Assembly: GCA_041651155.1 (NCBI GenBank)
Contig: JBAZJU010000002.1
Location: 21,467-85,466, forward strand
DNA from: Patescibacteria group bacterium
Lineage (GTDB): Bacteria; Patescibacteriota; Patescibacteriia; CAIXNZ01
Length of the DNA stretch: 64,000 bases
Reading direction: 5' to 3'
Part shown: positions 1,951 through 43,572 of the stretch, one piece after another
How positions within the stretch are numbered: position 1 is the first letter of the stretch
How the letters are laid out: each line of letters starts with the position of its first letter
Program-made: the position numbers and the translations under genes
Notes under the pieces: generated by a model
The model's input: only the letters and a program-made list of their open reading frames with translations
Told to the model about the DNA's origin: nothing
Databases searched by the model: none

Positions 1951-2440
1951 TCGGCCAGATAGCTCGTCTCGGCTGGGCAGACAAGCTTTTCTGTTATTAT
2001 AAAATTACATCCGAGCCGAAGCCGGGTAAGGCAGAGGTCTGCCGGCCTCCGCAAATTAAAATTATGGCCTGATAGCCAAGTAGTAAGGCAAGGGTCTGCC
2101 TGCCTTCGCAAATTATGGTCTGGTAGCCAAGCAGTAAGGCAGAGGTCTGCAAAACCTCTATACATGGGTGCAATTCCCATCCAGACCTAAAGACGTTGTT
2201 TGCTACGGCAGGTCAAAATCTAAGGTCCTCCGTAGCTCTTAGAGCGTAGGAGGACAAAACCCTTATGCGTGGGTGCAACTCCCACTCAGGCCTCCATGTA
2301 AATTTGCTTCGGCCAGTCAATATCTATTTAGATCCTCCGAAGCTCCGTAGGAGCGAAGGCGGACAAAACCTCTATGCAGAGTGCCTGCCCTCCATAGTTT
2401 TAACGAAGGAGGGCAACTCCCACTCAGGCCTAAAGCGTTA
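1951..2440 (+). repeat. cluster of tRNA-Cys-derived partial copies (three 5' units, two 3'-half units) with hairpin insertions
   Basis: Repeated GGYCTGRTAGCCAAGYAGTAAGGCAGRGGTCTGC units and repeated ...GTGGGTGCAACTCCCACTCAGGCC units. The minus-strand ORF 1926..2180 shows the internal repeats expected of this DNA. Confidence 0.6.
2117..2188 (+). tRNA. tRNA-Cys(GCA)-like gene, the only complete copy in the cluster
   Basis: Acceptor GGTCTGG/CCAGACC; anticodon stem GAGGT/ACCTC with loop CTGCAAA (GCA); T-arm ATGGG-TGCAATT-CCCAT; discriminator T. The D-loop lacks GG and T-loop position 55 is G, so it is atypical. Confidence 0.55.
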
Positions 2441-5819: not shown

Positions 5820-6263
5820 ATGACAAATAAAGTGATTTATCCAGAATTATCTTATGAAATAGTGGGTGTTTTATTTGATGTTTATAATGAACTGGGTTAT
5901 GGTTACCAAGAAAAATATTATGACAGTGCTGTGGCAAAGGCCTTAGATTTGAAGCATATCAGATTTAAGCGGCAAGTGCCTTTTGATGTAAAATATAAAG
6001 ACAATAAAATTGGTAAAGGAATACTTGATTTTTTAATTGAAGATAAAATCGTATTAGAATTAAAAATCGGAAAATATTTTACTAAACAAAGTTTTAATCA
6101 GGTAAAAGGCTATCTTAAATCCACTAATAAAAAATTGGCAATCATGGCTATTTTTACTCCTAAAGGTGTTAGGTTTATTAGAATCTTAAATGAAAATAAT
6201 AAAATTAGTAAAAATGAAACAGAAATAAACCTTAATAAAGTTAGAGAATTATTCAAATATTAA
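5820..6263 (+). CDS. GxxExxY (PDDEXK_3) family protein
   Basis: N-terminus LSYEIVGVLFDVYNELGYGYQEKYY matches the GxxExxY signature. Confidence 0.7.
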   Translation: MTNKVIYPELSYEIVGVLFDVYNELGYGYQEKYYDSAVAKALDLKHIRFKRQVPFDVKYKDNKIGKGILDFLIEDKIVLELKIGKYFTKQSFNQVKGYLKSTNKKLAIMAIFTPKGVRFIRILNENNKISKNETEINLNKVRELFKY

Positions 6264-9075: not shown

Positions 9076-9112
9076 TAGAGGTTCGGCCTCCAATTTGGAG
9101 GCCGAACCTCTA
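9076..9112. repeat. REP-like perfect palindrome (copy 1)
   Basis: tagaggttcggcctccaatttggaggccgaacctcta, 7 nt after the polA stop; second copy at 42252-42284. Confidence 0.7.
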
Positions 9113-16403: not shown

Positions 16404-16647
16404 AGACTTGTCTAAGTTAATAATAAATTATATGATTAGTATATCTTAATTTTATCATTTATTGGCTAACAAAGAAATATTCAAAAATCTCTTTTGTGAA
16501 TTTCTTAAATATTTTTTGTACATGCTTTTATTCATTAGATAGTAAATATATTATTGTAATGACAAAATTACCAAAATTATTACTTATTACGACACTTGTT
16601 TTTTCCTAAAATTACTTAAATTTTGCTAATAAGCTCAATTTTACATT

Positions 16648-16673
16648 AAAAATGTTTCACGTGAAACATTTTT
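16648..16673. promoter_or_regulatory. 26-bp perfect palindrome (operator or bidirectional terminator candidate)
   Basis: aaaaatgtttcacgtgaaacattttt in the divergent region between the ferritin-like gene and tRNA-Arg. Confidence 0.4.
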
Positions 16674-16728
16674 AAAATATAGGCTAATATTAGCAATAAA
16701 AGTGTTAATTTACTATAAATAAATAAGT

Positions 16729-16815
16729 CCCTGTAGTTTCCGCCCAAGGCGGATCAGCCTGTCTTGGCCAAGGCCAGGCCTCTGGCTGACAACGGATACA
16801 CTGACAATTAAATAA
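16729..16815 (+). repeat. 5' fragment duplicate of tRNA-Arg fused to a GC-rich hairpin element
   Basis: aaataagtccctgtagtt repeats the tRNA start and is followed by ccgcccaaggcggatcagcct...ggctgaca. Confidence 0.6.
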
Positions 16816-16887
16816 GTCCCCGTAGTTCAACGGATAGAACGAGAGACTCCTAAGCTCTAGATAGAGGTTCGATTCCTCTCGGGGACA
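16816..16887 (+). tRNA. tRNA-Arg(CCT)
   Basis: Acceptor GTCCCCG/CGGGGAC, D-arm GTTCAACGGATAGAAC, anticodon loop CTCCTAA, T-arm AGAGG-TTCGATT-CCTCT. Confidence 0.85.
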
Positions 16888-17001
16888 TATTTTGGCCTTA
16901 TAGCTCTGCCAGCCGGAGTACATTCAGAGTGGGAGAGCTAAAGGGCTCAAGTCCTTATGGTCAAAATATAAAATTTTGCTTTAAAATGAATATGCTAAAA
17001 T

Positions 17002-17250
17002 ATGCCAAATAAAGAGTCCTTGGAACAACAAAATTTACAATTTTATACATTTGCTGATGGAATTTTTAGTTTTTGGGAAGCAAAAATCAATGATAAGCAA
17101 AGCATTATATTTAGGGTAAGAAATGATAGTACTCCGGCAAAAAGGGCTCTGGAAAAGGGTATTTCTAATGGAATTTCATTATATCCAGCTAAAAAAGAAC
17201 CTGTTCAAAAATGGCTAAATTCTCATCCAGATTATCCAATTATTGAATAA
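17002..17250 (+). CDS. hypothetical small protein
   Basis: ORF track only. Confidence 0.3.
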   Translation: MPNKESLEQQNLQFYTFADGIFSFWEAKINDKQSIIFRVRNDSTPAKRALEKGISNGISLYPAKKEPVQKWLNSHPDYPIIE

Positions 17251-17289
17251 ATACGCCAGTAATAGAGCCACCTTCGGTAAAAATTACAA

Positions 17290-17580
17290 TAATATGGCTA
17301 TTTAGCTCCCACCTATGCACCTTTGGAGCTCCGGCTGGCAGGCAACCCTAAAATGACACCATTTGTGGATGTTTATCCTATTTTTACTAAGGGCAATTAG
17401 CTCCAGCCTAAAAGGGCCCCTTTGGGGCTGGTTAGAGCGTACGATTCACACCTGCCTGCCGTAGTATATAAATTCTAAAAATTATTAGCAAATATGGCCA
17501 TTTAGCTCACACCTACGCATACGCTTCGGCGGGCAGGCAGTTGGCTAGAGCGCTTCATTCACACCTGTCCGCCGAAATTA
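17290..17580 (+). repeat. three degenerate 5'-half copies of tRNA-Val with GC-rich hairpin insertions
   Basis: Each copy runs GGC(Y)ATTTAGCTC[insertion]..GTTAGAGCG..TTCACACC(TG) and stops just past the anticodon loop. Confidence 0.6.
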
Positions 17581-17581
17581 T

Positions 17582-17655
17582 GGGATTATAGCTCAGTTGG
17601 TCAGAGCGTACGGTTCACATCCGTAAGGTCAGAGGTTCAAGTCCTCTTAATCCCA
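17582..17655 (+). tRNA. tRNA-Val(CAC)
   Basis: GGGATTA..TAATCCC acceptor, anticodon loop TTCACAT, T-arm AGAGG-TTCAAGT-CCTCT. Confidence 0.85.
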
Positions 17656-17894
17656 ATACTTATGAAGGCGGATTGAAGAGGTCGCAGATTCAAGCCCTGC
17701 AATGGCCATACGAAGGCAGGTTCGTAAGGTCACTGGTTCAAACCCAGTATTGCCCACCTTTGTCCTACGAAGCTTTAGACGGTCGGTCTTCGGCCTTTAC
17801 AGACGGAAGTCGGCTACTGAGCCGACGAATGTCGTTAAGCACAGCCCACAAAACAACATTATTACTTATTACTAATTACTTATTACTAATTTAC

Positions 17895-18971
17895 ATGTCA
17901 TTATCCATTGCTATTGTTGGCCTACCCAATGTAGGCAAATCAACCATATTTAATGCCTTAACTCGCCAAAAGGTTGATGCTCAAAACTATCCATTTTGCA
18001 CCATTAATCCTAATATTGGGTGTGTTAAGGTACCTGATGACCGGCTTGATCAACTTGCTGTCATGTCAAATTCAGAAAAGATTATTTATTCTACCATTGA
18101 ATTTACAGATATTGCTGGATTGGTTAGAGGCGCACATAAAGGAGAAGGATTGGGCAACCAATTTTTATCTAACATTAGGGAATGTAATGTAATCTGTCAT
18201 ATTTTACGACACTTCAAAGATGAAAACGTTGTGCATGTTGAACAAAAAATTGACCCAAAATTAGATTTAGAGATTATAAACCTTGAGTTGGCCATGGCTG
18301 ATTTAGCCCAAATCCAGAAAAAATTAGATTCAATTAAAAATGACCTTGCTTTTAAAGATTTAACTATTCTCCTTAAAAAGCTGCAAGAAAATTTGAATAA
18401 TAATATCTTAATTAAAGATATTATATTTTCAGATGAAGAAAAAATTAGTATTAAAGAATATAATTTTTTAACTGCAAAACCATGTCTGTATATAATTAAC
18501 ATTGCTGAAACGGATTTAAAAAAAGAAGCGCCTGAAATTTTAAAAGAAATAAATTTAGATTTAAATCCTGATGAAGTTATTTTAGTTTGTGGTAAAATGG
18601 AAGCAGAATTATCAACTCTTAGTGAAAGTGAGGTCAAGGAATATTTAAATAACTTACAGATAAAACAAACCGGCTTGGAAAAAATGATAATTGCCGGTTA
18701 TAAACTATTGGATCTAATTTCTATGTTAACCACGGGACCAAAAGAAACAAGAGCCTGGACATTGACTCAAGGCACAAAAGCGCCACAGGCTGCTGGTAAA
18801 ATTCATACTGATTTTGAAAAAGGCTTTGCTAGAGTGGAAGTTATTTATTGGCAAGATCTGCTAAATATCGGCAACTGGATAAAAGCTAAAGAAAAAGGTC
18901 TTATCAGGATGGAGGGTAAAGACTATGTGATTAAAGATGGGGATACTGTTATTTTTCATTTTTCTAAATAG
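17895..18971 (+). CDS. ychF: ribosome-binding ATPase YchF
   Basis: MSLSIAIVGLPNVGKSTIFNALT P-loop and C-terminal TGS-like region. The ORF-track N-terminal extension runs through tRNA-like DNA and is rejected. Confidence 0.9.
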   Translation: MSLSIAIVGLPNVGKSTIFNALTRQKVDAQNYPFCTINPNIGCVKVPDDRLDQLAVMSNSEKIIYSTIEFTDIAGLVRGAHKGEGLGNQFLSNIRECNVICHILRHFKDENVVHVEQKIDPKLDLEIINLELAMADLAQIQKKLDSIKNDLAFKDLTILLKKLQENLNNNILIKDIIFSDEEKISIKEYNFLTAKPCLYIINIAETDLKKEAPEILKEINLDLNPDEVILVCGKMEAELSTLSESEVKEYLNNLQIKQTGLEKMIIAGYKLLDLISMLTTGPKETRAWTLTQGTKAPQAAGKIHTDFEKGFARVEVIYWQDLLNIGNWIKAKEKGLIRMEGKDYVIKDGDTVIFHFSK

Positions 18972-21803: not shown

Positions 21804-22023
21804 TTTTTTTCTGTCAACGCCCAAATTTCACTTCATTTCATTCAGTGAAACTTCAGATAGCCCGAAACGTTATATGAAACATGCTTTTCTTTTTACGGCT
21901 AACCTGCCGGCAGGCAGGCAGGCGCCTAACAATTTTCTTTGCGCGAATCTTGCGCGAATCTTGCGCGAACCGCTATTTTGTGATATAATGCCAGCGTAGT
22001 CTAAAAAATCCATACTTCATAAT

Positions 22024-23079: not shown

Positions 23080-23385
23080 AAGCGATATGGCTACAGTTTG
23101 CATTTGCCCATTTAATTCCCCTCCGCCCTTCCCGCCAGAGGCGGACACAGCGTCCAACCTGCCTGCCGGCAGGCAGGAACGGAAAAAGAAAAGTATAGCT
23201 GGCTACCCCTTCGACTCCGCTTCGTTCCGCTCAGGGTCCGCCCATATTGTTCGTCTTAAGATAATCAAGATATACTATAAATAACTAATTCAAAACGAAC
23301 AACATCAGATATCCCGAAACGTTATCGGAAATTTTATTTGCCCTTAATTTTATTTTAATTTTACCCTTTTAATCTAAATTTTAAT

Positions 23386-34866: not shown

Positions 34867-34940
34867 AAGCGGGTGACCGGAATCGAACCGGCATCTCGAC
34901 CTTGGAAGGGTCGCATACTAACCATTGTACTACACCCGCC
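34867..34940 (-). tRNA. tRNA-Gly(TCC)
   Basis: Minus-strand GGCGGGT..anticodon arm CGACC-CTTCCAA-GGTCG..T-arm GCCGG-TTCGATT-CCGGT. Confidence 0.85.
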
Positions 34941-34983
34941 CAGATAAAAGTTTGTGCATTTAAAGCTTCAACCTTCTTTTATC

Positions 34984-35216
34984 TCAGCTAGAGAAAAAAT
35001 GGTTTAAACGAATCATCCATAAACTTTTATCTGGGCACGCAGTTATTTTATTTTCTTTTCCCGATTTATTTAAATATTCGGAAAGCATTGTCCTCAAAGT
35101 CGTTTTACCCTTGGTTGTCTTAAAATACTTTTCTCGTCTCAAGGCATCTGATTTATTTAAATATGCTTCGTAAAAAATCAAATCTAACGGCCGCCTATAT
35201 TTAGTTGAGGGACATC
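34984..35216 (-). pseudogene. N-terminally truncated GIY-YIG nuclease-family (UPF0213/YhbQ-like) remnant
   Basis: STKYRRPLDLIFYEAYLNKSDALRREKYFKTTKGK parallels the C-terminal half of ORF 36017..36283; in-frame stops remove the GIY half. Confidence 0.5.
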
Positions 35217-35420
35217 ACCATCATGATGTCTTTTTGTTCTTTCCGTGATGTTAGCGGTAAATCCAATATAAAAATTTTTATCTTTTTGAGATAACAAAAT
35301 GTATGTATAGTAAAACATATTCTGGGGTTAAGGCCATGCACCAGGCGGTGCACGACCATAAACCATTTACCTTACAGTAATGACGGACTCAAGACCCGCC
35401 ATAAACCGCATGGTTTATGG

Positions 35421-35494: not shown

Positions 35495-35639
35495 TAAATT
35501 ATTTTAAGATAGCCTCCGCCAGAGACTGGTCAGCCTTTGGCTGAAACTTCTCTACGGCCCGTTATTATTAATTACTAATCTTCAATAATTAATTTTCAAA
35601 AATTATAAATTGAAAATTGAGCATTGAAAATTCTAATTG

Positions 35640-35894
35640 TGCCTGGGGGCAGAATCGAACTGCCAACCTGCCTGCCGGCAGGCAGGCGCAAGGCTACGAA
35701 CCACTCACTTCGTTCGGGTGCATGGTAAATTTTTCAGCCTGCCCTGCACTAAAAATTTACTATTGCCGAAGGGCAGAATCGAACTGCCAACGCAAGGATT
35801 TTCAGTCCTTCGCTCTACCACTGAGCTACTTCGGCTCATTTGTATAATATTTTTTAGTGCAGGGTCCTTCGCTCTACCACTGAGCTACCCAGGC
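35640..35894 (-). pseudogene. disrupted tRNA-Phe-like gene split by nested insertions (outer gene)
   Basis: 5' half GCCTGGGTAGCTCAGTGGTAGAGCGAAGGAC at 35894-35864 and 3' part CCTTGCG[CCTGCCTGCCGGCAGGCAGG]TTGGCAGTTCGATTCTGCCCCCAGGCA at 35694-35641, interrupted by an intact tRNA-Phe flanked by 15-bp inverted repeats. Confidence 0.55.
35764..35835 (-). tRNA. tRNA-Phe(GAA), intact, nested inside the disrupted copy
   Basis: GCCGAAG-TA-GCTCAGTGGTAGAGC-G-AAGGA-CTGAAAA-TCCTT-GCGTT-GGCAG-TTCGATT-CTGCC-CTTCGGC-A. Confidence 0.85.
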
Positions 35895-36016
35895 CCGATA
35901 AAAGTCTGCGTATTTAATGGATAAACAATTATTTAACCGCTGATCAATTTAAAATGTTGAACCAAATAATACCTAAACTTTTATCGGGCCAGAGGCCTTT
36001 ATATTATATTTAGCCT

Positions 36017-36283
36017 CTACTTTTTTATAATATTTTGCAAAAAATTCTTTAATCTTTTTTTGAGATATCTTTTCCCCTGACCGCTTTTTAAAAACTTCTC
36101 ACGTTTTATTGCATCATATTTATTTACACAACATTCATAATAAATTAAACAAATTGGCAATCTATTTCTAGTTGAAGGTACTTTTCCTGCCAAATGTTCC
36201 TTGTGTCGCTTTTTTAAATCCGAAGTATACCCGGTATAAAAATTTAAATCTTTTTTGCTTAAATAGACATAAACAAAATACAT
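36017..36283 (-). CDS. GIY-YIG nuclease family protein (UPF0213/YhbQ-like, 88 aa)
   Basis: YFVYVYL...FYTGYTSDLKKRHKEH (GIY-YIG half), conserved R/E, and YDAIKREKFLK; no SD; starts 27 nt after tRNA-Ile. Confidence 0.7.
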   Translation of the reverse strand: MYFVYVYLSKKDLNFYTGYTSDLKKRHKEHLAGKVPSTRNRLPICLIYYECCVNKYDAIKREKFLKSGQGKRYLKKRLKNFLQNIIKK

Positions 36284-36310: not shown

Positions 36311-36384
36311 TGGACGTAGATGGACTTGAACCATCGACCTCGTCATTATCAGTGACGCGCTCTAACCAACTGAGCTATACGTCC
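36311..36384 (-). tRNA. tRNA-Ile(GAT)
   Basis: GGACGTA-TA-GCTCAGTTGGTTAGAGC-G-CGTCA-CTGATAA-TGACG-AGGTC-GATGG-TTCAAGT-CCATC-TACGTCC-A, immediately 3' of the 16S. Confidence 0.85.
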
Positions 36385-36688
36385 CGATAAAAGTCTGCGT
36401 ATTTTATCATTATATGCGGACTTTATCTACAATAAACAAACTACATTTTTTCTAAATTTTACATAAACTTTTATCGGGACACGTCCTAAAAAAATTTTTA
36501 GCTTGATAAACCAATTTTATCAAAAAAGACTGGCTCAATCAAGATCTAAAAGTTGATATTAACTAAGCCAGTCTTTTTAAATTGAGCCTTAACGCCTAAA
36601 AAGTGATAGAATCGTCGTCTGCCTCAAGGTTGAGGCTCGACCGATAGAGTAAAGGGCCTTTACGGTCATTTTACTCAAATACTCCCTA

Positions 36689-38190
<1,502 letters not shown>

Positions 38191-38620: not shown

Positions 38621-39575
38621 GTCAAGGGGTTGTTATGGTTCAATACCTTTGCACCACCCTGTGGTAAGCTTGGGTATATGCCATACACTATGAATCCAAA
38701 ATTACCGCGTCTGCGCATGCAGACTGCGAAGCTCGTATTAAAACAAGGTTGGAGTACGCGACAAGCTGCCAGATATACAGGATTTGACCACAGCACTATT
38801 GTCCGTTGGGTTAAGAAAGCAAGGTTAAGTAACAAACGGATTATTCCCACTGAAAGTTCACGCCCTAATCATCATCCCTTAGCCATTTCACACAAAATTG
38901 TCAGTGCAATTTTAGGGCATCGGGACAAGTATCATCGGTGTGCTGAAGTTATCCATTATCAATTAAACAAAGACGGTATTGTTGTAAGTTTGTCTTCTGT
39001 TAAAAGAACGCTAAAACGTTATGGCCTAATTTACCCGAGCAAATGGAAAAAGTGGCATGTTTATCCGCCTCGTCCAATAGCTGAAAAACCTGGGGTTTTA
39101 GTTGAAATTGACTCAATGCAGGAAGGTTTGCCTGCAGAACATTTACACCTCTATGCCTTAATTGATACCTGTTCTCGCTGGGGATTTGCCAAGCCGGTAA
39201 AAATAGTTAATTCCTGGCAAAGCGCCAAGTTCTTTCTAGAGGCTAAGGATAAAGCATTATTTACTTTCCGTATGATCCAATCAGACAATGGAAGTGAATT
39301 CGCCAAGTGGTTTAACAAACAACTGTTGGCTTCGGGAATTGAACATCGCCATTCTCGGGTAAGAAGACCGACGGACAACGGGCACGTTGAAAGATTTATT
39401 CGGACCATACAGCAAGAGTGTTTAGCCCGAAATCCTAGAAGTTTTAAAGCTTGGCAAAAAGCTATTCCTGAATTTATTAATTATTACAATACCGAGCGTC
39501 CACACATGGGGATTAACATGAAAACACCCCTTGAAGTGGTGCGAAGCTATTGACCAGAAAACAGGGGTTTTTTGG
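38610..39575 (+). mobile_element. IS481-family insertion sequence (approximate ends)
   Basis: Transposase ORF with HTH and rve DDE core. Imperfect terminal inverted repeats TGTTATGGTTCAATACC (left) and GCTATTGACCAGAAAACA (right), the latter overlapping the stop codon. Confidence 0.7.
38678..39553 (+). CDS. IS481-family DDE transposase
   Basis: N-terminal HTH (STRQAARYTGFDHSTIVRW) and integrase core with D..D..E (VEIDSM...QSDNGSEF...ERFIRT). Confidence 0.8.
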   Translation: MPYTMNPKLPRLRMQTAKLVLKQGWSTRQAARYTGFDHSTIVRWVKKARLSNKRIIPTESSRPNHHPLAISHKIVSAILGHRDKYHRCAEVIHYQLNKDGIVVSLSSVKRTLKRYGLIYPSKWKKWHVYPPRPIAEKPGVLVEIDSMQEGLPAEHLHLYALIDTCSRWGFAKPVKIVNSWQSAKFFLEAKDKALFTFRMIQSDNGSEFAKWFNKQLLASGIEHRHSRVRRPTDNGHVERFIRTIQQECLARNPRSFKAWQKAIPEFINYYNTERPHMGINMKTPLEVVRSY

Positions 39576-41775: not shown

Positions 41776-41982
41776 TTAATATAATTATTTTAAGTCCTAA
41801 TGCATTTTAACTACTCTATTAAATATTTCTCCATTTCTTTTTTCTTTTTCATAAATAAAGCGGTTTCTTCTGCTATTTTTTTATAATCCCGAACTTCGTC
41901 TAATATAATTTGTTTACTGCAAAGATTATTTTCTTTTATCCCTAAATAAGCGGGGTAACTGCACCATGGGTAATCAGCGGCA

Positions 41983-42498
41983 TTATCGGTTATTCCGTGA
42001 ATCTGGGCATTGGTGTTTTACATAGACGGAAAGCCAAAGCAAATGGTCAAAAGAAGTTATTTGAGTCGCTTTAAATTTACCTTGGAATAACACTCCGTTT
42101 CGATTATTTTTAGTATTGAAATACATAGTATAAGATGTCCCTAAACGCTGCATGAATTTTATAATACCGTTTTCTGCTAATTGCCTTACTATAAAATGAT
42201 AATGATTGGGATTTAAACAGTAACAGATAAATTCTACCAGGGGGTCGCTCAAAGGTTCGGCCTCCAAATTGGAGGCCGAACCTTGATCGCCTTGGTCGCC
42301 TACCTTAACTATTTCATTTATCGCTCTTTCCCTCAAAAACTTCCGATAAAACCCACCATCAACTTTGTTAGTATTGAATTCTGTCATGCTTTTTAAGAAT
42401 CTTAAATAATCGCCTTCGTCTAAAAAAACATCGCGTTTATCAACACCGCGATTATAGATATGGTAATATTCGTTATTATTGAAAATTATTTTTCGCAT
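41983..42498 (-). CDS. RAYT/IS200-like Y1 (HuH) transposase carrying an in-frame REP insertion
   Basis: YHIYNRG, HuH motif HYHFIV, GVLFQGKF and Tyr in SVYVKHQ; segment GDQGDQGSASNLEAEPLS is encoded by the palindrome at 42252-42284. Confidence 0.65.
   Translation of the reverse strand: MRKIIFNNNEYYHIYNRGVDKRDVFLDEGDYLRFLKSMTEFNTNKVDGGFYRKFLRERAINEIVKVGDQGDQGSASNLEAEPLSDPLVEFICYCLNPNHYHFIVRQLAENGIIKFMQRLGTSYTMYFNTKNNRNGVLFQGKFKATQITSFDHLLWLSVYVKHQCPDSRNNR
42252..42284. repeat. REP-like palindrome (copy 2), inside the RAYT-like gene
   Basis: aaggttcggcctccaaattggaggccgaacctt with adjacent direct repeats ccttgatcgc / cttggtcgcc. Confidence 0.7.
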
Positions 42499-43166: not shown

Positions 43167-43204
43167 ATGAAATATGTAATAGGTAATAAGGATTGGTATT
43201 TCAT
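43167..43204. repeat. left arm of palindromic element flanking the four-helix-bundle gene
   Basis: gaaatatgtaataggtaataaggattggtattt, a 33-nt identical match to the reverse complement of the recA-copy right arm. Confidence 0.75.
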
Positions 43205-43572
43205 TTTTTATCCTTTGTCTGTTTGATTAAATTATTTAACTTAGCATTCAATAAATTTAATTTTTCTAAAAAATCTTGGTGATTAGATTTTTCGATAACT
43301 TTACGCTCCAGTAACAAATCATTCCAGTGCCTTGCCTCAAATAAAGATGCTCTTGCATTATAATAAAATTTAGCTTTATCTAAATAATGAAATCGGCCAT
43401 AGCCTTCTGCCACATTAGCAGCGATTGAATCTAAAGCTGTTATATATTGACGACCAAATATATAACGATTCTCTGAATTTAATTGCTCAAAATTAGCCCA
43501 ACCAATTCTAGATAATTCTCTGGCCAATTGATAAACTTCTAAATCTTCTAACTTTAAATATTCATTTCCCAT
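43201..43572 (-). CDS. four-helix-bundle protein (23S rRNA intervening-sequence protein family, TIGR02436-like)
   Basis: 123-aa helical protein, LEVYQLARELSRIGW...AANVAEGYGR family pattern. Confidence 0.75.
   Translation of the reverse strand: MGNEYLKLEDLEVYQLARELSRIGWANFEQLNSENRYIFGRQYITALDSIAANVAEGYGRFHYLDKAKFYYNARASLFEARHWNDLLLERKVIEKSNHQDFLEKLNLLNAKLNNLIKQTKDKK

Follow-up and report, generated by a model that had tools for sequence, protein, structure and literature searches.

The stretch of DNA analysed here, referred to as the window, comprises 64,000 nt from a Patescibacteria group bacterium (assembly GCA_041651155.1, contig JBAZJU010000002.1, positions 21,467 to 85,466). On its plus strand lies a short run of tRNA genes, Arg(CCT)-Ala(GGC)-Val(CAC), followed by ychF as the 3' neighbour, and this gene order is kept in 9 genome loci and 18 metagenome loci. 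The intact tRNA-Arg and tRNA-Val genes are accompanied by pieces of further tRNA genes. At tRNA-Val these pieces form a nest, in which the intact gene lies in the anticodon loop of a second tRNA-Val(CAC) gene and this one in the anticodon loop of a third. tRNA genes were called with ARAGORN and Rfam, and the nests were compared with loci of relatives, which carry L numbers.

Upstream of the intact tRNA-Val, three Val-like 5' units begin with GGNNATTTAGCTC, at 17296 (A), 17391 (B) and 17496 (C). A first-pass annotation, made from the sequence alone, had described all three as degenerate copies of the 5' half with a GC-rich hairpin in the D-loop, ending just past the anticodon loop. For B and C this holds, with inserts of 24 and 30 nt and a stop in the anticodon loop at TTCACA/CCTG, whereas A is weak, with an alignment score of 7 and no clear anticodon part. 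Counterparts of an A-type 5' unit precede tRNA-Val in L002, L005 (twice) and L021.

The apparent truncation at the anticodon loop is not confirmed, as the 3' halves of B and C are found downstream of tRNA-Val. The order of the locus is 5'B-5'C-Val-3'C-3'B, so that the halves mirror each other. The 3' half of C runs from TTGAAG to AATGGCCA and is complementary to the C 5' half in the acceptor stem (GGCCATT) and the anticodon stem (CTTCA). Likewise, the 3' half of B, from TTCGTA to ATTGCCCA, matches the acceptor (GGGCAAT) and anticodon stem (TACGA) of the B 5' half. After removal of the inserts, B and C each yield a perfect tRNA-Val(CAC) cloverleaf in ARAGORN, with 7/7 complementary positions in the acceptor stem and 5/5 in the anticodon stem. 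The G53>A change in C of the window disrupts the conserved 53-61 pair and leaves a mismatch in the cloverleaf. The minimum-energy RNA fold of the natural sequence between 17391 and 17756 consists of nested cloverleaves, with z = -4.4 relative to shuffled sequences. The innermost tRNA-Val(CAC) is presumably the sole working copy.

The three Val layers differ pairwise at 14-18 of 74 nt, including compensatory changes in the stems. Their nearest intact relatives are found elsewhere: B is 2 nt from the genes of L006 and L016, C is 3-4 nt from those of L014 and L027, and 6 nt separate the inner Val from the gene of L004. Because the layers are this far apart and yet within 2-6 nt of intact genes in other loci, they are distinct tRNA-Val lineages that arrived in succession and not local copies. 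Tandem slippage, the outcome named by the first-pass annotation as speaking against its own reading, does not account for layers that differ to this extent and are nested in mirror order.

Table. Features of the nested tRNA loci and candidate enzyme genes in the window. Positions are those of the window.
Feature	Position	Strand	Details	Basis or remark
tRNA-Arg(CCT), older 5' stump	16727-16805	+	Positions 1-12 (16727-16738), two GC hairpins at D-stem/loop (16739-16753, 16754-16789), positions 13-21 (16790-16798), then diverged	
tRNA-Arg(CCT), intact	16816-16887	+	Inner (youngest) copy	ARAGORN; Rfam 65.3 bits
tRNA-Ala(GGC) pseudogene	16894-16963	+	5' end, 28-nt D-loop hairpin insert (16907-16934), anticodon arm deleted, T arm and 3' end kept	
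Val-like 5' fragment A	17296-17371	+	Orphan; reverse-oriented hairpin element in D-loop (17310-17344)	No 3' partner found
tRNA-Val(CAC) B, 5' half	17391-17450	+	Positions 1-37; 24-nt D-loop hairpin insert (17404-17427)	Rebuilt cloverleaf
Cassette at 37/38 of B	17451-17720	+	Left arm CCTG-CCTGCC-GTAGT (17451-17465), AT-rich spacer, split Val C, T, right arm ACGAA-GGCAGG (17710-17720)	
tRNA-Val(CAC) C, 5' half	17496-17563	+	30-nt reverse-oriented hairpin element in D-loop (17510-17539)	Rebuilt cloverleaf
Cassette at 37/38 of C	17564-17672	+	Left arm CCTG-TCCGCC-GAAAT (17564-17578), TAT, intact Val, spacer, right arm ATGAA-GGCGGA (17662-17672)	
tRNA-Val(CAC), intact	17582-17655	+	Innermost copy	ARAGORN; Rfam 73.5 bits
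tRNA-Val C, 3' half	17673-17708	+	Positions 38-73; G53>A	Compared with intact C of L014 and L027
tRNA-Val B, 3' half	17721-17756	+	Positions 38-73	Rebuilt cloverleaf
Degenerate hairpin element	17757-17848	+	Reverse-oriented; left arm is the 3' end of Val B (GCCCACC...)	Conserved 3' of Val in relatives
tRNA-Cys(GCA) nest	1953-2431	+	Two outer layers around the intact gene	
Cys outer1	1953-2041, 2364-2431	+	5' part with 62-nt D-loop insert; 3' part with 30-nt T-loop insert	
Cys outer2	2066-2098, 2256-2293	+	5' part; 3' part	Rebuilt to tRNA-Cys(GCA)
tRNA-Cys, intact	2117-2188	+		
Cys nest arms	2042-2057, 2099-2114, 2202-2212	+	Also arm region (2334-2363) and free hairpin (2225-2255)	
tRNA-Phe(GAA) nest	35638-35894	-	One outer layer	Outer copy rebuilt to tRNA-Phe(GAA)
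Phe outer, 5' half	35864-35894	-		
tRNA-Phe, intact	35763-35835	-	Flanked by 13-nt inverted-repeat arms CCTGCACTAAAAA/TTTTTAGTGCAGG	
Phe outer, 3' part		-	Extra inserts, among them the 20-nt palindrome CCTGCCTGCCGGCAGGCAGG in the variable loop (35667-35686)	
GIY-YIG nuclease gene	36017-36283	-	Stand-alone, 88 aa, UPF0213 type; between tRNA-Ile and outer Phe	Pfam GIY-YIG; PDB 1zg2, E=2e-6
RayT-like Y1/HUH transposase gene	41810-42497	-	Frameshifted; adjoins trmD	Pfam Y1_Tnp

The loci of relatives contain both filled and empty versions of these sites. Type B tRNA-Val is intact and uninterrupted in six of them (L002, L006, L015, L016, L017 and L021). In L027, whose YchF is 96% identical to that of the window over the first 55 residues (all that the contig holds), B is split at the same nucleotide by the same cassette as in the window, and the C gene within it is intact. 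This earlier stage, B(C), compared with B(C(Val)) in the window, explains the pattern without the excision that the first-pass annotation had assumed. Another Val type is found inside B at the same nucleotide in L011 and L004, with arms in L011 that differ and covary (CCAGCC/GGCTGG), and L003 contains yet another Val type within a decayed outer Val. Thus, at least four tRNA-Val(CAC) lineages with differing arms occur at one locus and one nucleotide among close relatives. For tRNA-Ala, a near-identical inner Ala is present at 34/35 of two distinct outer Ala alleles, in L003 and L004, and empty counterparts of those outer alleles are found in L005/L018 and L006/L016; L004 and L006 are mutually closest relatives (YchF 84%). 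Presence and absence at an identical site are hence seen for Val 37/38 and for Ala 34/35. Together with the nests, these filled and empty sites bear out repeated site-specific insertion in tRNA anticodon loops, as first proposed. When relatives are inspected at these tRNAs, as had been suggested, occupied sites do appear; what occupies them are tRNA cassettes and not integrase-bearing elements.

An intact cognate copy is present inside every nest, and decay is confined to the outer copies, which show G53A (Val C), an A.A mismatch (Cys outer1), additional inserts in loops, deletions and deleted anticodon arms. In the nests seen (Val, Ala, Cys, Phe, Arg and Ser) the cargo tRNA is always cognate and co-oriented with the host gene. 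L026 retains chimeric Val remnants without an intact Val(CAC). Where isoacceptors with UNN anticodons exist, Val(CAC), Ala(GGC) and Arg(CCU) are dispensable through wobble decoding, which may be why Val, Ala and Arg can be lost outright, while Cys and Phe keep an intact inner copy.

Next to tRNA-Arg, the 5' pseudo-copy with a GC-rich hairpin noted in the first pass was recovered, with an alignment score of 19 against tRNA-Arg and at most 10 against other tRNAs. It does begin with positions 1-12; its extent is larger than the ~12 nt assumed, since two hairpins are followed by positions 13-21 as well, and the AAATAA leader is also duplicated. The 3' remainder of this outer copy is gone in the window. 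Matching stumps are present in L011, L016 (twice, as two identical tandem copies), L017 and L026. L017 has preserved a full Arg nest, consisting of the 5' stump with D-loop hairpins, the inner gene and the 3' remainder, whose T-loop contains the same hairpins. The Ala(GGC) pseudogene between Arg and Val was missed in the first pass, as were the tRNA-Phe nest and a 5' stump preceding tRNA-Pro. Ala(GGC) is intact at the corresponding position in relatives, and related pseudogenes occur in L027 and L026. A perfect 26-nt palindrome, AAAAATGTTTCACGTGAAACATTTTT, lies 5' of tRNA-Arg at 16648-16673 and at the same place in L002, L011, L017, L018 and L027; a role as operator or as bidirectional terminator of the tRNA operon is possible.

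A tandem rearrangement is seen at the Ala gene of L018 (3390-3620), where downstream of an intact 'outer'-type Ala come part of an inner Ala, the right arm, another outer 3' half and the downstream flank once more. We take this as a rearranged or partly reverted Ala nest, which suggests recombination between filled and empty alleles.

The cluster resembling tRNA-Cys has the same architecture, as the first pass had stated. With the inserts removed, ARAGORN recognised Cys outer2 and Phe outer, like Val B and C, as tRNAs whose anticodon agrees with that of the intact gene, a likeness that goes far beyond chance. In L153 the Cys 3' halves are repeated. The palindrome in the variable loop of outer Phe is also found between genes of the window, exactly at 23158-23177 and as a variant with two mismatches at 21903-21922, and it is present in the T-loop of the outer Val of L011. 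Near the variant, at 21935-21965, the short tandem repeat GCGCGAATCTT occurs three times. Elements of ~100 nt with the terminal inverted repeats (G)CCCGATAAAAGT...ACTTTTATCGGG(C) are located on the minus strand of the window at 34938-35036, 35893-35989 and 36381-36480, abutting the 5' ends of tRNA-Gly, outer tRNA-Phe and tRNA-Ile, and in relatives that of tRNA-Ala (L004 5440-5540, L006 5690-5790). Their right arm provides the first 2-5 nt of the tRNA, and in their left flank the start of the tRNA is briefly repeated in direct orientation, as if they had been inserted in the acceptor stem and the stem had then been rebuilt.

The Val, Ala and Cys cassettes are each bounded by the two halves of one hairpin. 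The left arm consists of C(C/T)TG, a 6-nt pyrimidine-rich stem and GWAGY, the right arm of RCGWA and the complementary stem. A single cassette, composed of left arm, AT-rich spacer, complete cognate tRNA gene, short spacer and right arm, measures ~110-135 nt, and whole inserts measure 109-270 nt. Their cargo is the intact tRNA itself, which disagrees with the earlier idea that the interior of a larger element had been lost. The same hairpin is also found 'empty', with ~30 bp and usually a 4-nt loop. In ~200 kb of non-redundant related loci the strict hairpin motif occurs 21 times, compared with no occurrence in 20 shuffled sets, and the loops are 4, 7-13, 45-52, 92-108 (tRNA cargo) or 244 nt (double nest) long. 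When the core alone was searched for, so that pairing was not presupposed, 20 of 45 matches had flanks complementary at 5/6 positions or more, where 2.3 would be expected, and the stems comprised at least 14 distinct sequences. In 16 of 20 cases TG forms the end of the 5' flank, CCTG being the commonest version.

Empty hairpins sit in D-loops, T-loops, variable loops, at tRNA ends and inside other hairpins. Relative to the tRNA they occur in both orientations, those in D-loops always being reverse-oriented. The element 3' of tRNA-Val has the form CCCACC-GWAGY-(45-52 nt)-GCGAA-GGTGGG in L005, L014, L022 and L027. At one site of a methyltransferase gene an in-frame insertion of 10 aa (L002, L003) or a nested one of 20 aa (L017, L021) is found, which is absent in the window and six other relatives. 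Based on this patchy distribution, the empty hairpins clearly appear to be mobile. No target duplication is evident at the cassette insertions. Rfam scans by E-value of 16600-17900 and 1900-2480 returned only tRNAs and noise, with no group I or II intron, ribozyme or other family, and the hairpin itself matched no Rfam family. Stems derived from the target were considered as a general rule and dropped, since the arm equals acceptor-stem sequence at tRNA ends (L105, L108, L006) and not in the anticodon-loop cassettes. The likeness of the arm motif RCGWAGG to the 3' anticodon stem of Val (TCGTAAGG) was too weak to be used, and a promoter scan of the cassette spacers was uninformative.

A hairpin of the form CCGCC-GWAGC-(3-12 nt)-GCGWA-GGCGG is present in at least 120 environmental virus-like contigs of IMG/VR (L031-L150), mostly with 55-70% GC, with the same C(C/T)TG 5' flank and loops of the CUYG/UUUA type. 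In the dozen virus-like loci of lower GC that were examined, it is mostly intergenic and co-oriented with the neighbouring genes, and 9 of 13 tRNAs lie less than 300 nt from a hairpin. It was not found in cultured phage genomes, where blastn with one 36-nt high-GC consensus gave two partial matches only. Exact searches of IMG/VR with type-C Val and with the Val/arm junction gave no match; a phage origin of the cargo is thus unsupported.

With regard to enzymes, Pfam scans of the larger open reading frames (ORFs) of the window detected as mobility-type genes only an IS481-type DDE transposase, the Y1/HUH RayT-like gene and the small GIY-YIG gene. In agreement with the first pass, which had reported no integrase in the window, no tyrosine or serine recombinase was found in these scans, nor among the precomputed Pfam matches in the 10-kb flanks of the relatives. 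A frameshifted GIY-YIG copy is located at 35065-35315, upstream of tRNA-Gly, and another homologue adjoins a tmRNA gene. The strongest clue to an enzyme comes from tRNA-Ser nests in other Parcubacteria, located via homologues of the ORF downstream of the window's Cys nest. In L154, a 5' Ser stump is followed by a double hairpin, a GIY-YIG ORF, an intact tRNA-Ser(GGA), the same double hairpin and the 3' Ser remainder; L156 is similar. The GIY-YIG proteins of these two nests are 43-50% identical to that of the window. The RayT-like gene has 2285 homologues, some of them named RayT by JGI, and the named members belong mostly to Parcubacteria/Patescibacteria. It is intact in relatives, is syntenic beside trmD in L151 and L152, and appears to be vertically inherited. 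Its protein sequence gave no match in the PDB. A 29-nt palindrome of a second palindromic repeat family, GGTTCGGCCTCCAATTTGGAGGCCGAACC, occurs in frame inside the RayT-like gene (42254-42282) and just after polA (9080-9108). The RayT-like gene of L151 contains it too; at the corresponding point of the RayT-like gene of L152, another palindrome is found.

Comparison of the sequences shows that tRNA genes are nested, that sites are filled in some loci and empty in others, in which order the events took place, that the cargo comes from independent lineages and that outer copies decay. These findings point to a serial invasion of tRNA genes by tiny self-rescuing cassettes that carry a cognate tRNA, a reading which we consider probable. 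A cassette would land in the anticodon loop of the resident cognate gene, at 37/38 in Val (ambiguous by one nucleotide), 34/35 in Ala and Cys and ~32/33 in Phe. The resident gene would be split into two halves and die, and the cargo tRNA would take over, so that insertion may be tolerated even in the single-copy essential tRNAs Cys and Phe. The new gene could in turn be struck by a further cassette at that position, which would yield B(C(Val)). Point mutations, deletions and, in the D-, T- and variable loops, empty hairpins would accumulate in the dead halves, and their decay would leave the orphan 5' stumps. As filled and empty sites and an intermediate were observed, our confidence in cassette insertion and functional replacement is good; that the cassettes moved at the DNA level we infer.

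For the mover, we lean towards a homing-type process driven by the stand-alone GIY-YIG protein, whose nuclease activity is predicted, as a tentative choice. The nuclease would cleave the resident allele and the cargo allele would be immune, while the Val, Cys and Ala cassettes, which hold no ORF, may be degenerate or trans-mobilised forms. Homing would account for cargo that is cognate and co-oriented, for an insertion point that is identical, and for the coexistence of forms with and without ORF, as in the gain-decay-loss cycle of homing genes. It is somewhat unlikely, in our estimate, that the RayT-like HUH transposase moves the hairpin as a single strand ('peel and paste'). By this route, the hairpin would be transposed into single-stranded loops of folded tRNA DNA, and selection would leave only the cognate, and hence rescued, insertions. 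A further idea, possible though doubtful, is that the cassettes represent a new minimal selfish element of a 'cleave-and-rescue' type, the full form of which would comprise a GIY-YIG gene and a nuclease-resistant copy of the target tRNA. Such an element would home to the cognate anticodon loop and drive the turnover of tRNA alleles across Patescibacteria, repeated rounds giving rise to tRNA genes nested like Russian dolls.

Several observations weigh against serial invasion by cassettes or against the movers proposed for it. The Val, Arg and Cys nests contain no nuclease or transposase gene, and the Ala nests are also without an endonuclease gene. The GIY-YIG proteins have 82-94 aa, corresponding to the catalytic domain only, without an obvious DNA-recognition module, and other members of the family do not lie beside tRNAs (L159 group, L169). 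The RayT-like gene is frameshifted in the window, and no hairpins of the family flank it, the only palindrome being an unrelated one inside the ORF. In the Arg nest of L017 no GC arms flank the inner tRNA; hence the hairpin arms are not obligatory. Invasion by cassettes does not in itself explain how a tRNA first came to lie between two hairpin arms, and silence of the outer halves at the RNA level is a presumption. Since the data cover 64 kb of the source genome and about 30 related loci, cassettes outside cognate tRNAs may exist.

Among the other explanations, the one that survives best, and that we still regard as improbable, combines mobile hairpins resembling REP or Rickettsia palindromic elements with ordinary recombination: nests would have formed once by accident and been spread by homologous recombination after natural transformation. 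The evident mobility of empty hairpins fits this, as do the ~35 nt of homology that the outer halves supply on each side and the recA gene present in the window. It accounts poorly for the four or more Val cargo lineages with differing arms at one nucleotide and for cargo that is cognate and co-oriented in all nests seen, and nests in Val, Ala, Cys, Phe, Arg and Ser would be too many independent accidents.

It is very unlikely that the outer copies are functional interrupted genes, with B and C still used as intron-containing or split tRNAs that are joined at the RNA level. The Val break does coincide with the canonical 37/38 intron position, the complementary GC-rich arms prolong the anticodon stem as in split tRNAs, and a long transcript would fold as nested cloverleaves; moreover, rRNA genes of the candidate phyla radiation (CPR) hold many insertions that are removed from transcripts (PMC11270868). 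The junctions, however, lack a bulge-helix-bulge motif and form an asymmetric internal loop of ~7x4 nt with a 6-bp GC stem, not the 3-4-3 geometry, and the Rfam scans gave no group I/II intron or other ribozyme. No splicing endonuclease or ligase was seen among the window ORFs scanned (64 kb). In addition, each nest contains an intact cognate copy, the outer copies are disabled by G53A, inserts in D- and T-loops or a deleted anticodon arm, the break position varies among tRNA species, and the hairpins occur in both orientations.

Local duplication, by which slippage, unequal crossing-over or template switching at palindromes would have copied one tRNA gene, is hardly credible. It does occur on top of nests, as seen from the tandem Arg stumps of L016 and the Ala rearrangement of L018, but the layers, with their compensatory stem changes, each match an intact gene elsewhere, and the mirror nesting, conserved arms and exact loop positions recur in several tRNA species and genomes. 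Least credible of all are the att-site scars favoured in the first pass, left as duplicated 5' halves when phage-like or integrative elements moved in and out of anticodon loops: tRNA fragments beside an intact tRNA are what integrative elements classically leave (PMC9897764) and the breakpoints do lie in anticodon loops, but such scars would give direct repeats of one tRNA part around a large element, whereas here each old gene is represented by its 5' and its 3' half, in mirror order, the whole insert of 109-270 nt is the tRNA itself, the layers are different tRNA lineages and not copies of an att core, and the Pfam data revealed no recombinase of the tyrosine or serine type in the larger ORFs of the window or in the 10-kb flanks of the relatives.

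An assembly artefact was considered as well and rejected, because the region of the tRNA nests is 100% identical in a separate ENA metagenome contig and nests recur in many metagenomes. The window has a GC content of ~36% and contains a bacterial 16S gene, which is followed by tRNA-Ile and other tRNAs, without an adjoining 23S gene. Public genomes that encode relatives of its YchF bear the labels Uhrbacteria, Falkowbacteria, Buchananbacteria and Parcubacteria. An archaeal origin and cyanobacterial heptamer or SDR repeats were rejected on the basis of the bacterial 16S gene and the relatives labelled Parcubacteria. AT-rich heptamer-like repeats (TTATTAC/TAATTAC) lie directly 5' of ychF at 17860-17893, and similar runs occur at the same place in relatives. 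The otherwise identical ENA contig differs from the window at 312 positions of the 16S gene; it continues to khpA/trmD, the window to an IS481-family transposase (window positions concerned, 36927-38171 and 38630-39553). Because of these mismatches and the differing continuation, the rRNA flank of the window is either strain-variable or a chimeric assembly join.

The space between Arg and Val is variable. Most relatives have a CYTH-domain-like gene there (judged by eye), and the window has an 82-aa ORF without a family match (17002-17250); in the stretches compared (L002 5110-5645, L026 720-1100), L026 contains another ORF, unlike that of the window. L010 has a large ORF between Ala and ychF and lacks Val. 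Among the housekeeping genes of the window, two small genes look selfish, encoding a GxxExxY/PD-(D/E)XK protein and a four-helix-bundle '23S rRNA intervening sequence' protein (5820-6263, 43201-43572). The gene for the latter adjoins GIY-YIG genes in relatives (L159 group).

If invasion by self-rescuing cassettes is correct, it would represent a new lifestyle for a mobile element in an essential single-copy gene, which is made tolerable by a spare gene and not by a self-splicing ribozyme or a partial att copy, and a natural counterpart of synthetic cleave-and-rescue gene drives. tRNA genes would be replaced horizontally at high frequency in ultra-small genomes. The nests would also offer a testable bacterial model for a late-insertion origin of 37/38 tRNA introns and split tRNAs. 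Should the cleave-and-rescue idea hold, they would be a living bacterial case in which 37/38 interruptions and split halves with GC-rich flanks arise via late insertion of mobile DNA. As the arm hairpin family is present in at least 120 unrelated environmental virus-like contigs, it may matter more widely. For annotation, tRNA finders miss or mis-call such nests: ARAGORN reports a false 93-nt 'tRNA-Cys' at 17666-17758, which combines the 3' halves of Val C and B, and an outer copy, such as that of Ala in L003, may be taken for a gene with an intron.

Compared with known systems, an enzymatic likeness exists to SegB, a free-standing GIY-YIG homing endonuclease of phages T4 and T6 that promotes the inheritance or amplification of itself and of neighbouring tRNA genes; its association with tRNA genes is widespread in phages (PMC2330249; PMC13096335). 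Here, too, GIY-YIG genes lie beside or inside tRNA nests. SegB, however, has a DNA-binding part and acts between phage genomes, where it replaces or amplifies segments without nesting in the cognate gene, whereas most nests of the window have no ORF and the proteins are UPF0213 catalytic domains of 82-94 aa with predicted nuclease activity. With the REP/REPIN-RAYT system the hairpins share the short, imperfect, GC-rich palindrome, in which stems covary and a conserved tetranucleotide precedes the stem on its 5' side, and the presence of a Y1 transposase homologue (PMC3116915, PMC5581495). REPs are extragenic and usually flank the RAYT gene, while the hairpins described here lie inside tRNA and protein genes, do not flank the RayT-like gene, and in some cases enclose a complete tRNA gene in their loop.

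Rickettsia palindromic elements are ~100-150 bp long and are not known to carry cargo, in contrast to the present elements, which have ~30 bp when empty and may carry a tRNA gene that rescues the target. They, too, are small palindromic repeats in an AT-rich genome of reduced size, where they insert both in RNA genes and, in frame, in coding regions (PMC1166351), a likeness seen here in the patchy in-frame insertion of 10 or 20 aa in the methyltransferase and in the inserts in tRNA loops. Intron-containing archaeal tRNAs and the split tRNAs of Nanoarchaeum share with the nests the break in the anticodon loop, in Val at 37/38, and the complementary GC-rich flanks, and the D- and T-loop inserts resemble archaeal tRNAs with multiple introns (PMC4033280). 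Here, the host is bacterial, no bulge-helix-bulge motif is present, the interrupted copies are decaying and the 'intron' is a complete cognate tRNA. In a review table of tRNA gene types, bacteria are listed with group I intron-containing genes only (PMC4033280). Integrative elements that target tRNA genes also compensate for the damage to their target and leave tRNA fragments, for which CRISPR spacers are another known source (PMC9897764); they carry an overlapping part of the tRNA, an integrase and many genes, the cassette a whole tRNA gene and two short arms.

The insertions in CPR rRNA genes, finally, interrupt structural RNA genes in the same phylum, as is the case here. They sit at the top or at the base of stem-loops, and GIY-YIG or 23S_rRNA_IVP proteins are encoded in some of them (PMC11270868). 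In contrast to the cassettes, they are often group I/II introns with LAGLIDADG genes, are removed from transcripts and bring no replacement gene; the survey that describes them does not mention tRNA (PMC11270868). No description of nested or interrupted tRNA genes in CPR bacteria was found in the open-access literature. Hairpin repeats, GIY-YIG genes next to tRNAs and tRNA-targeting elements that repair their target are thus each of a known kind, while a whole cognate tRNA gene in an anticodon loop, in up to three layers, appears to be new.

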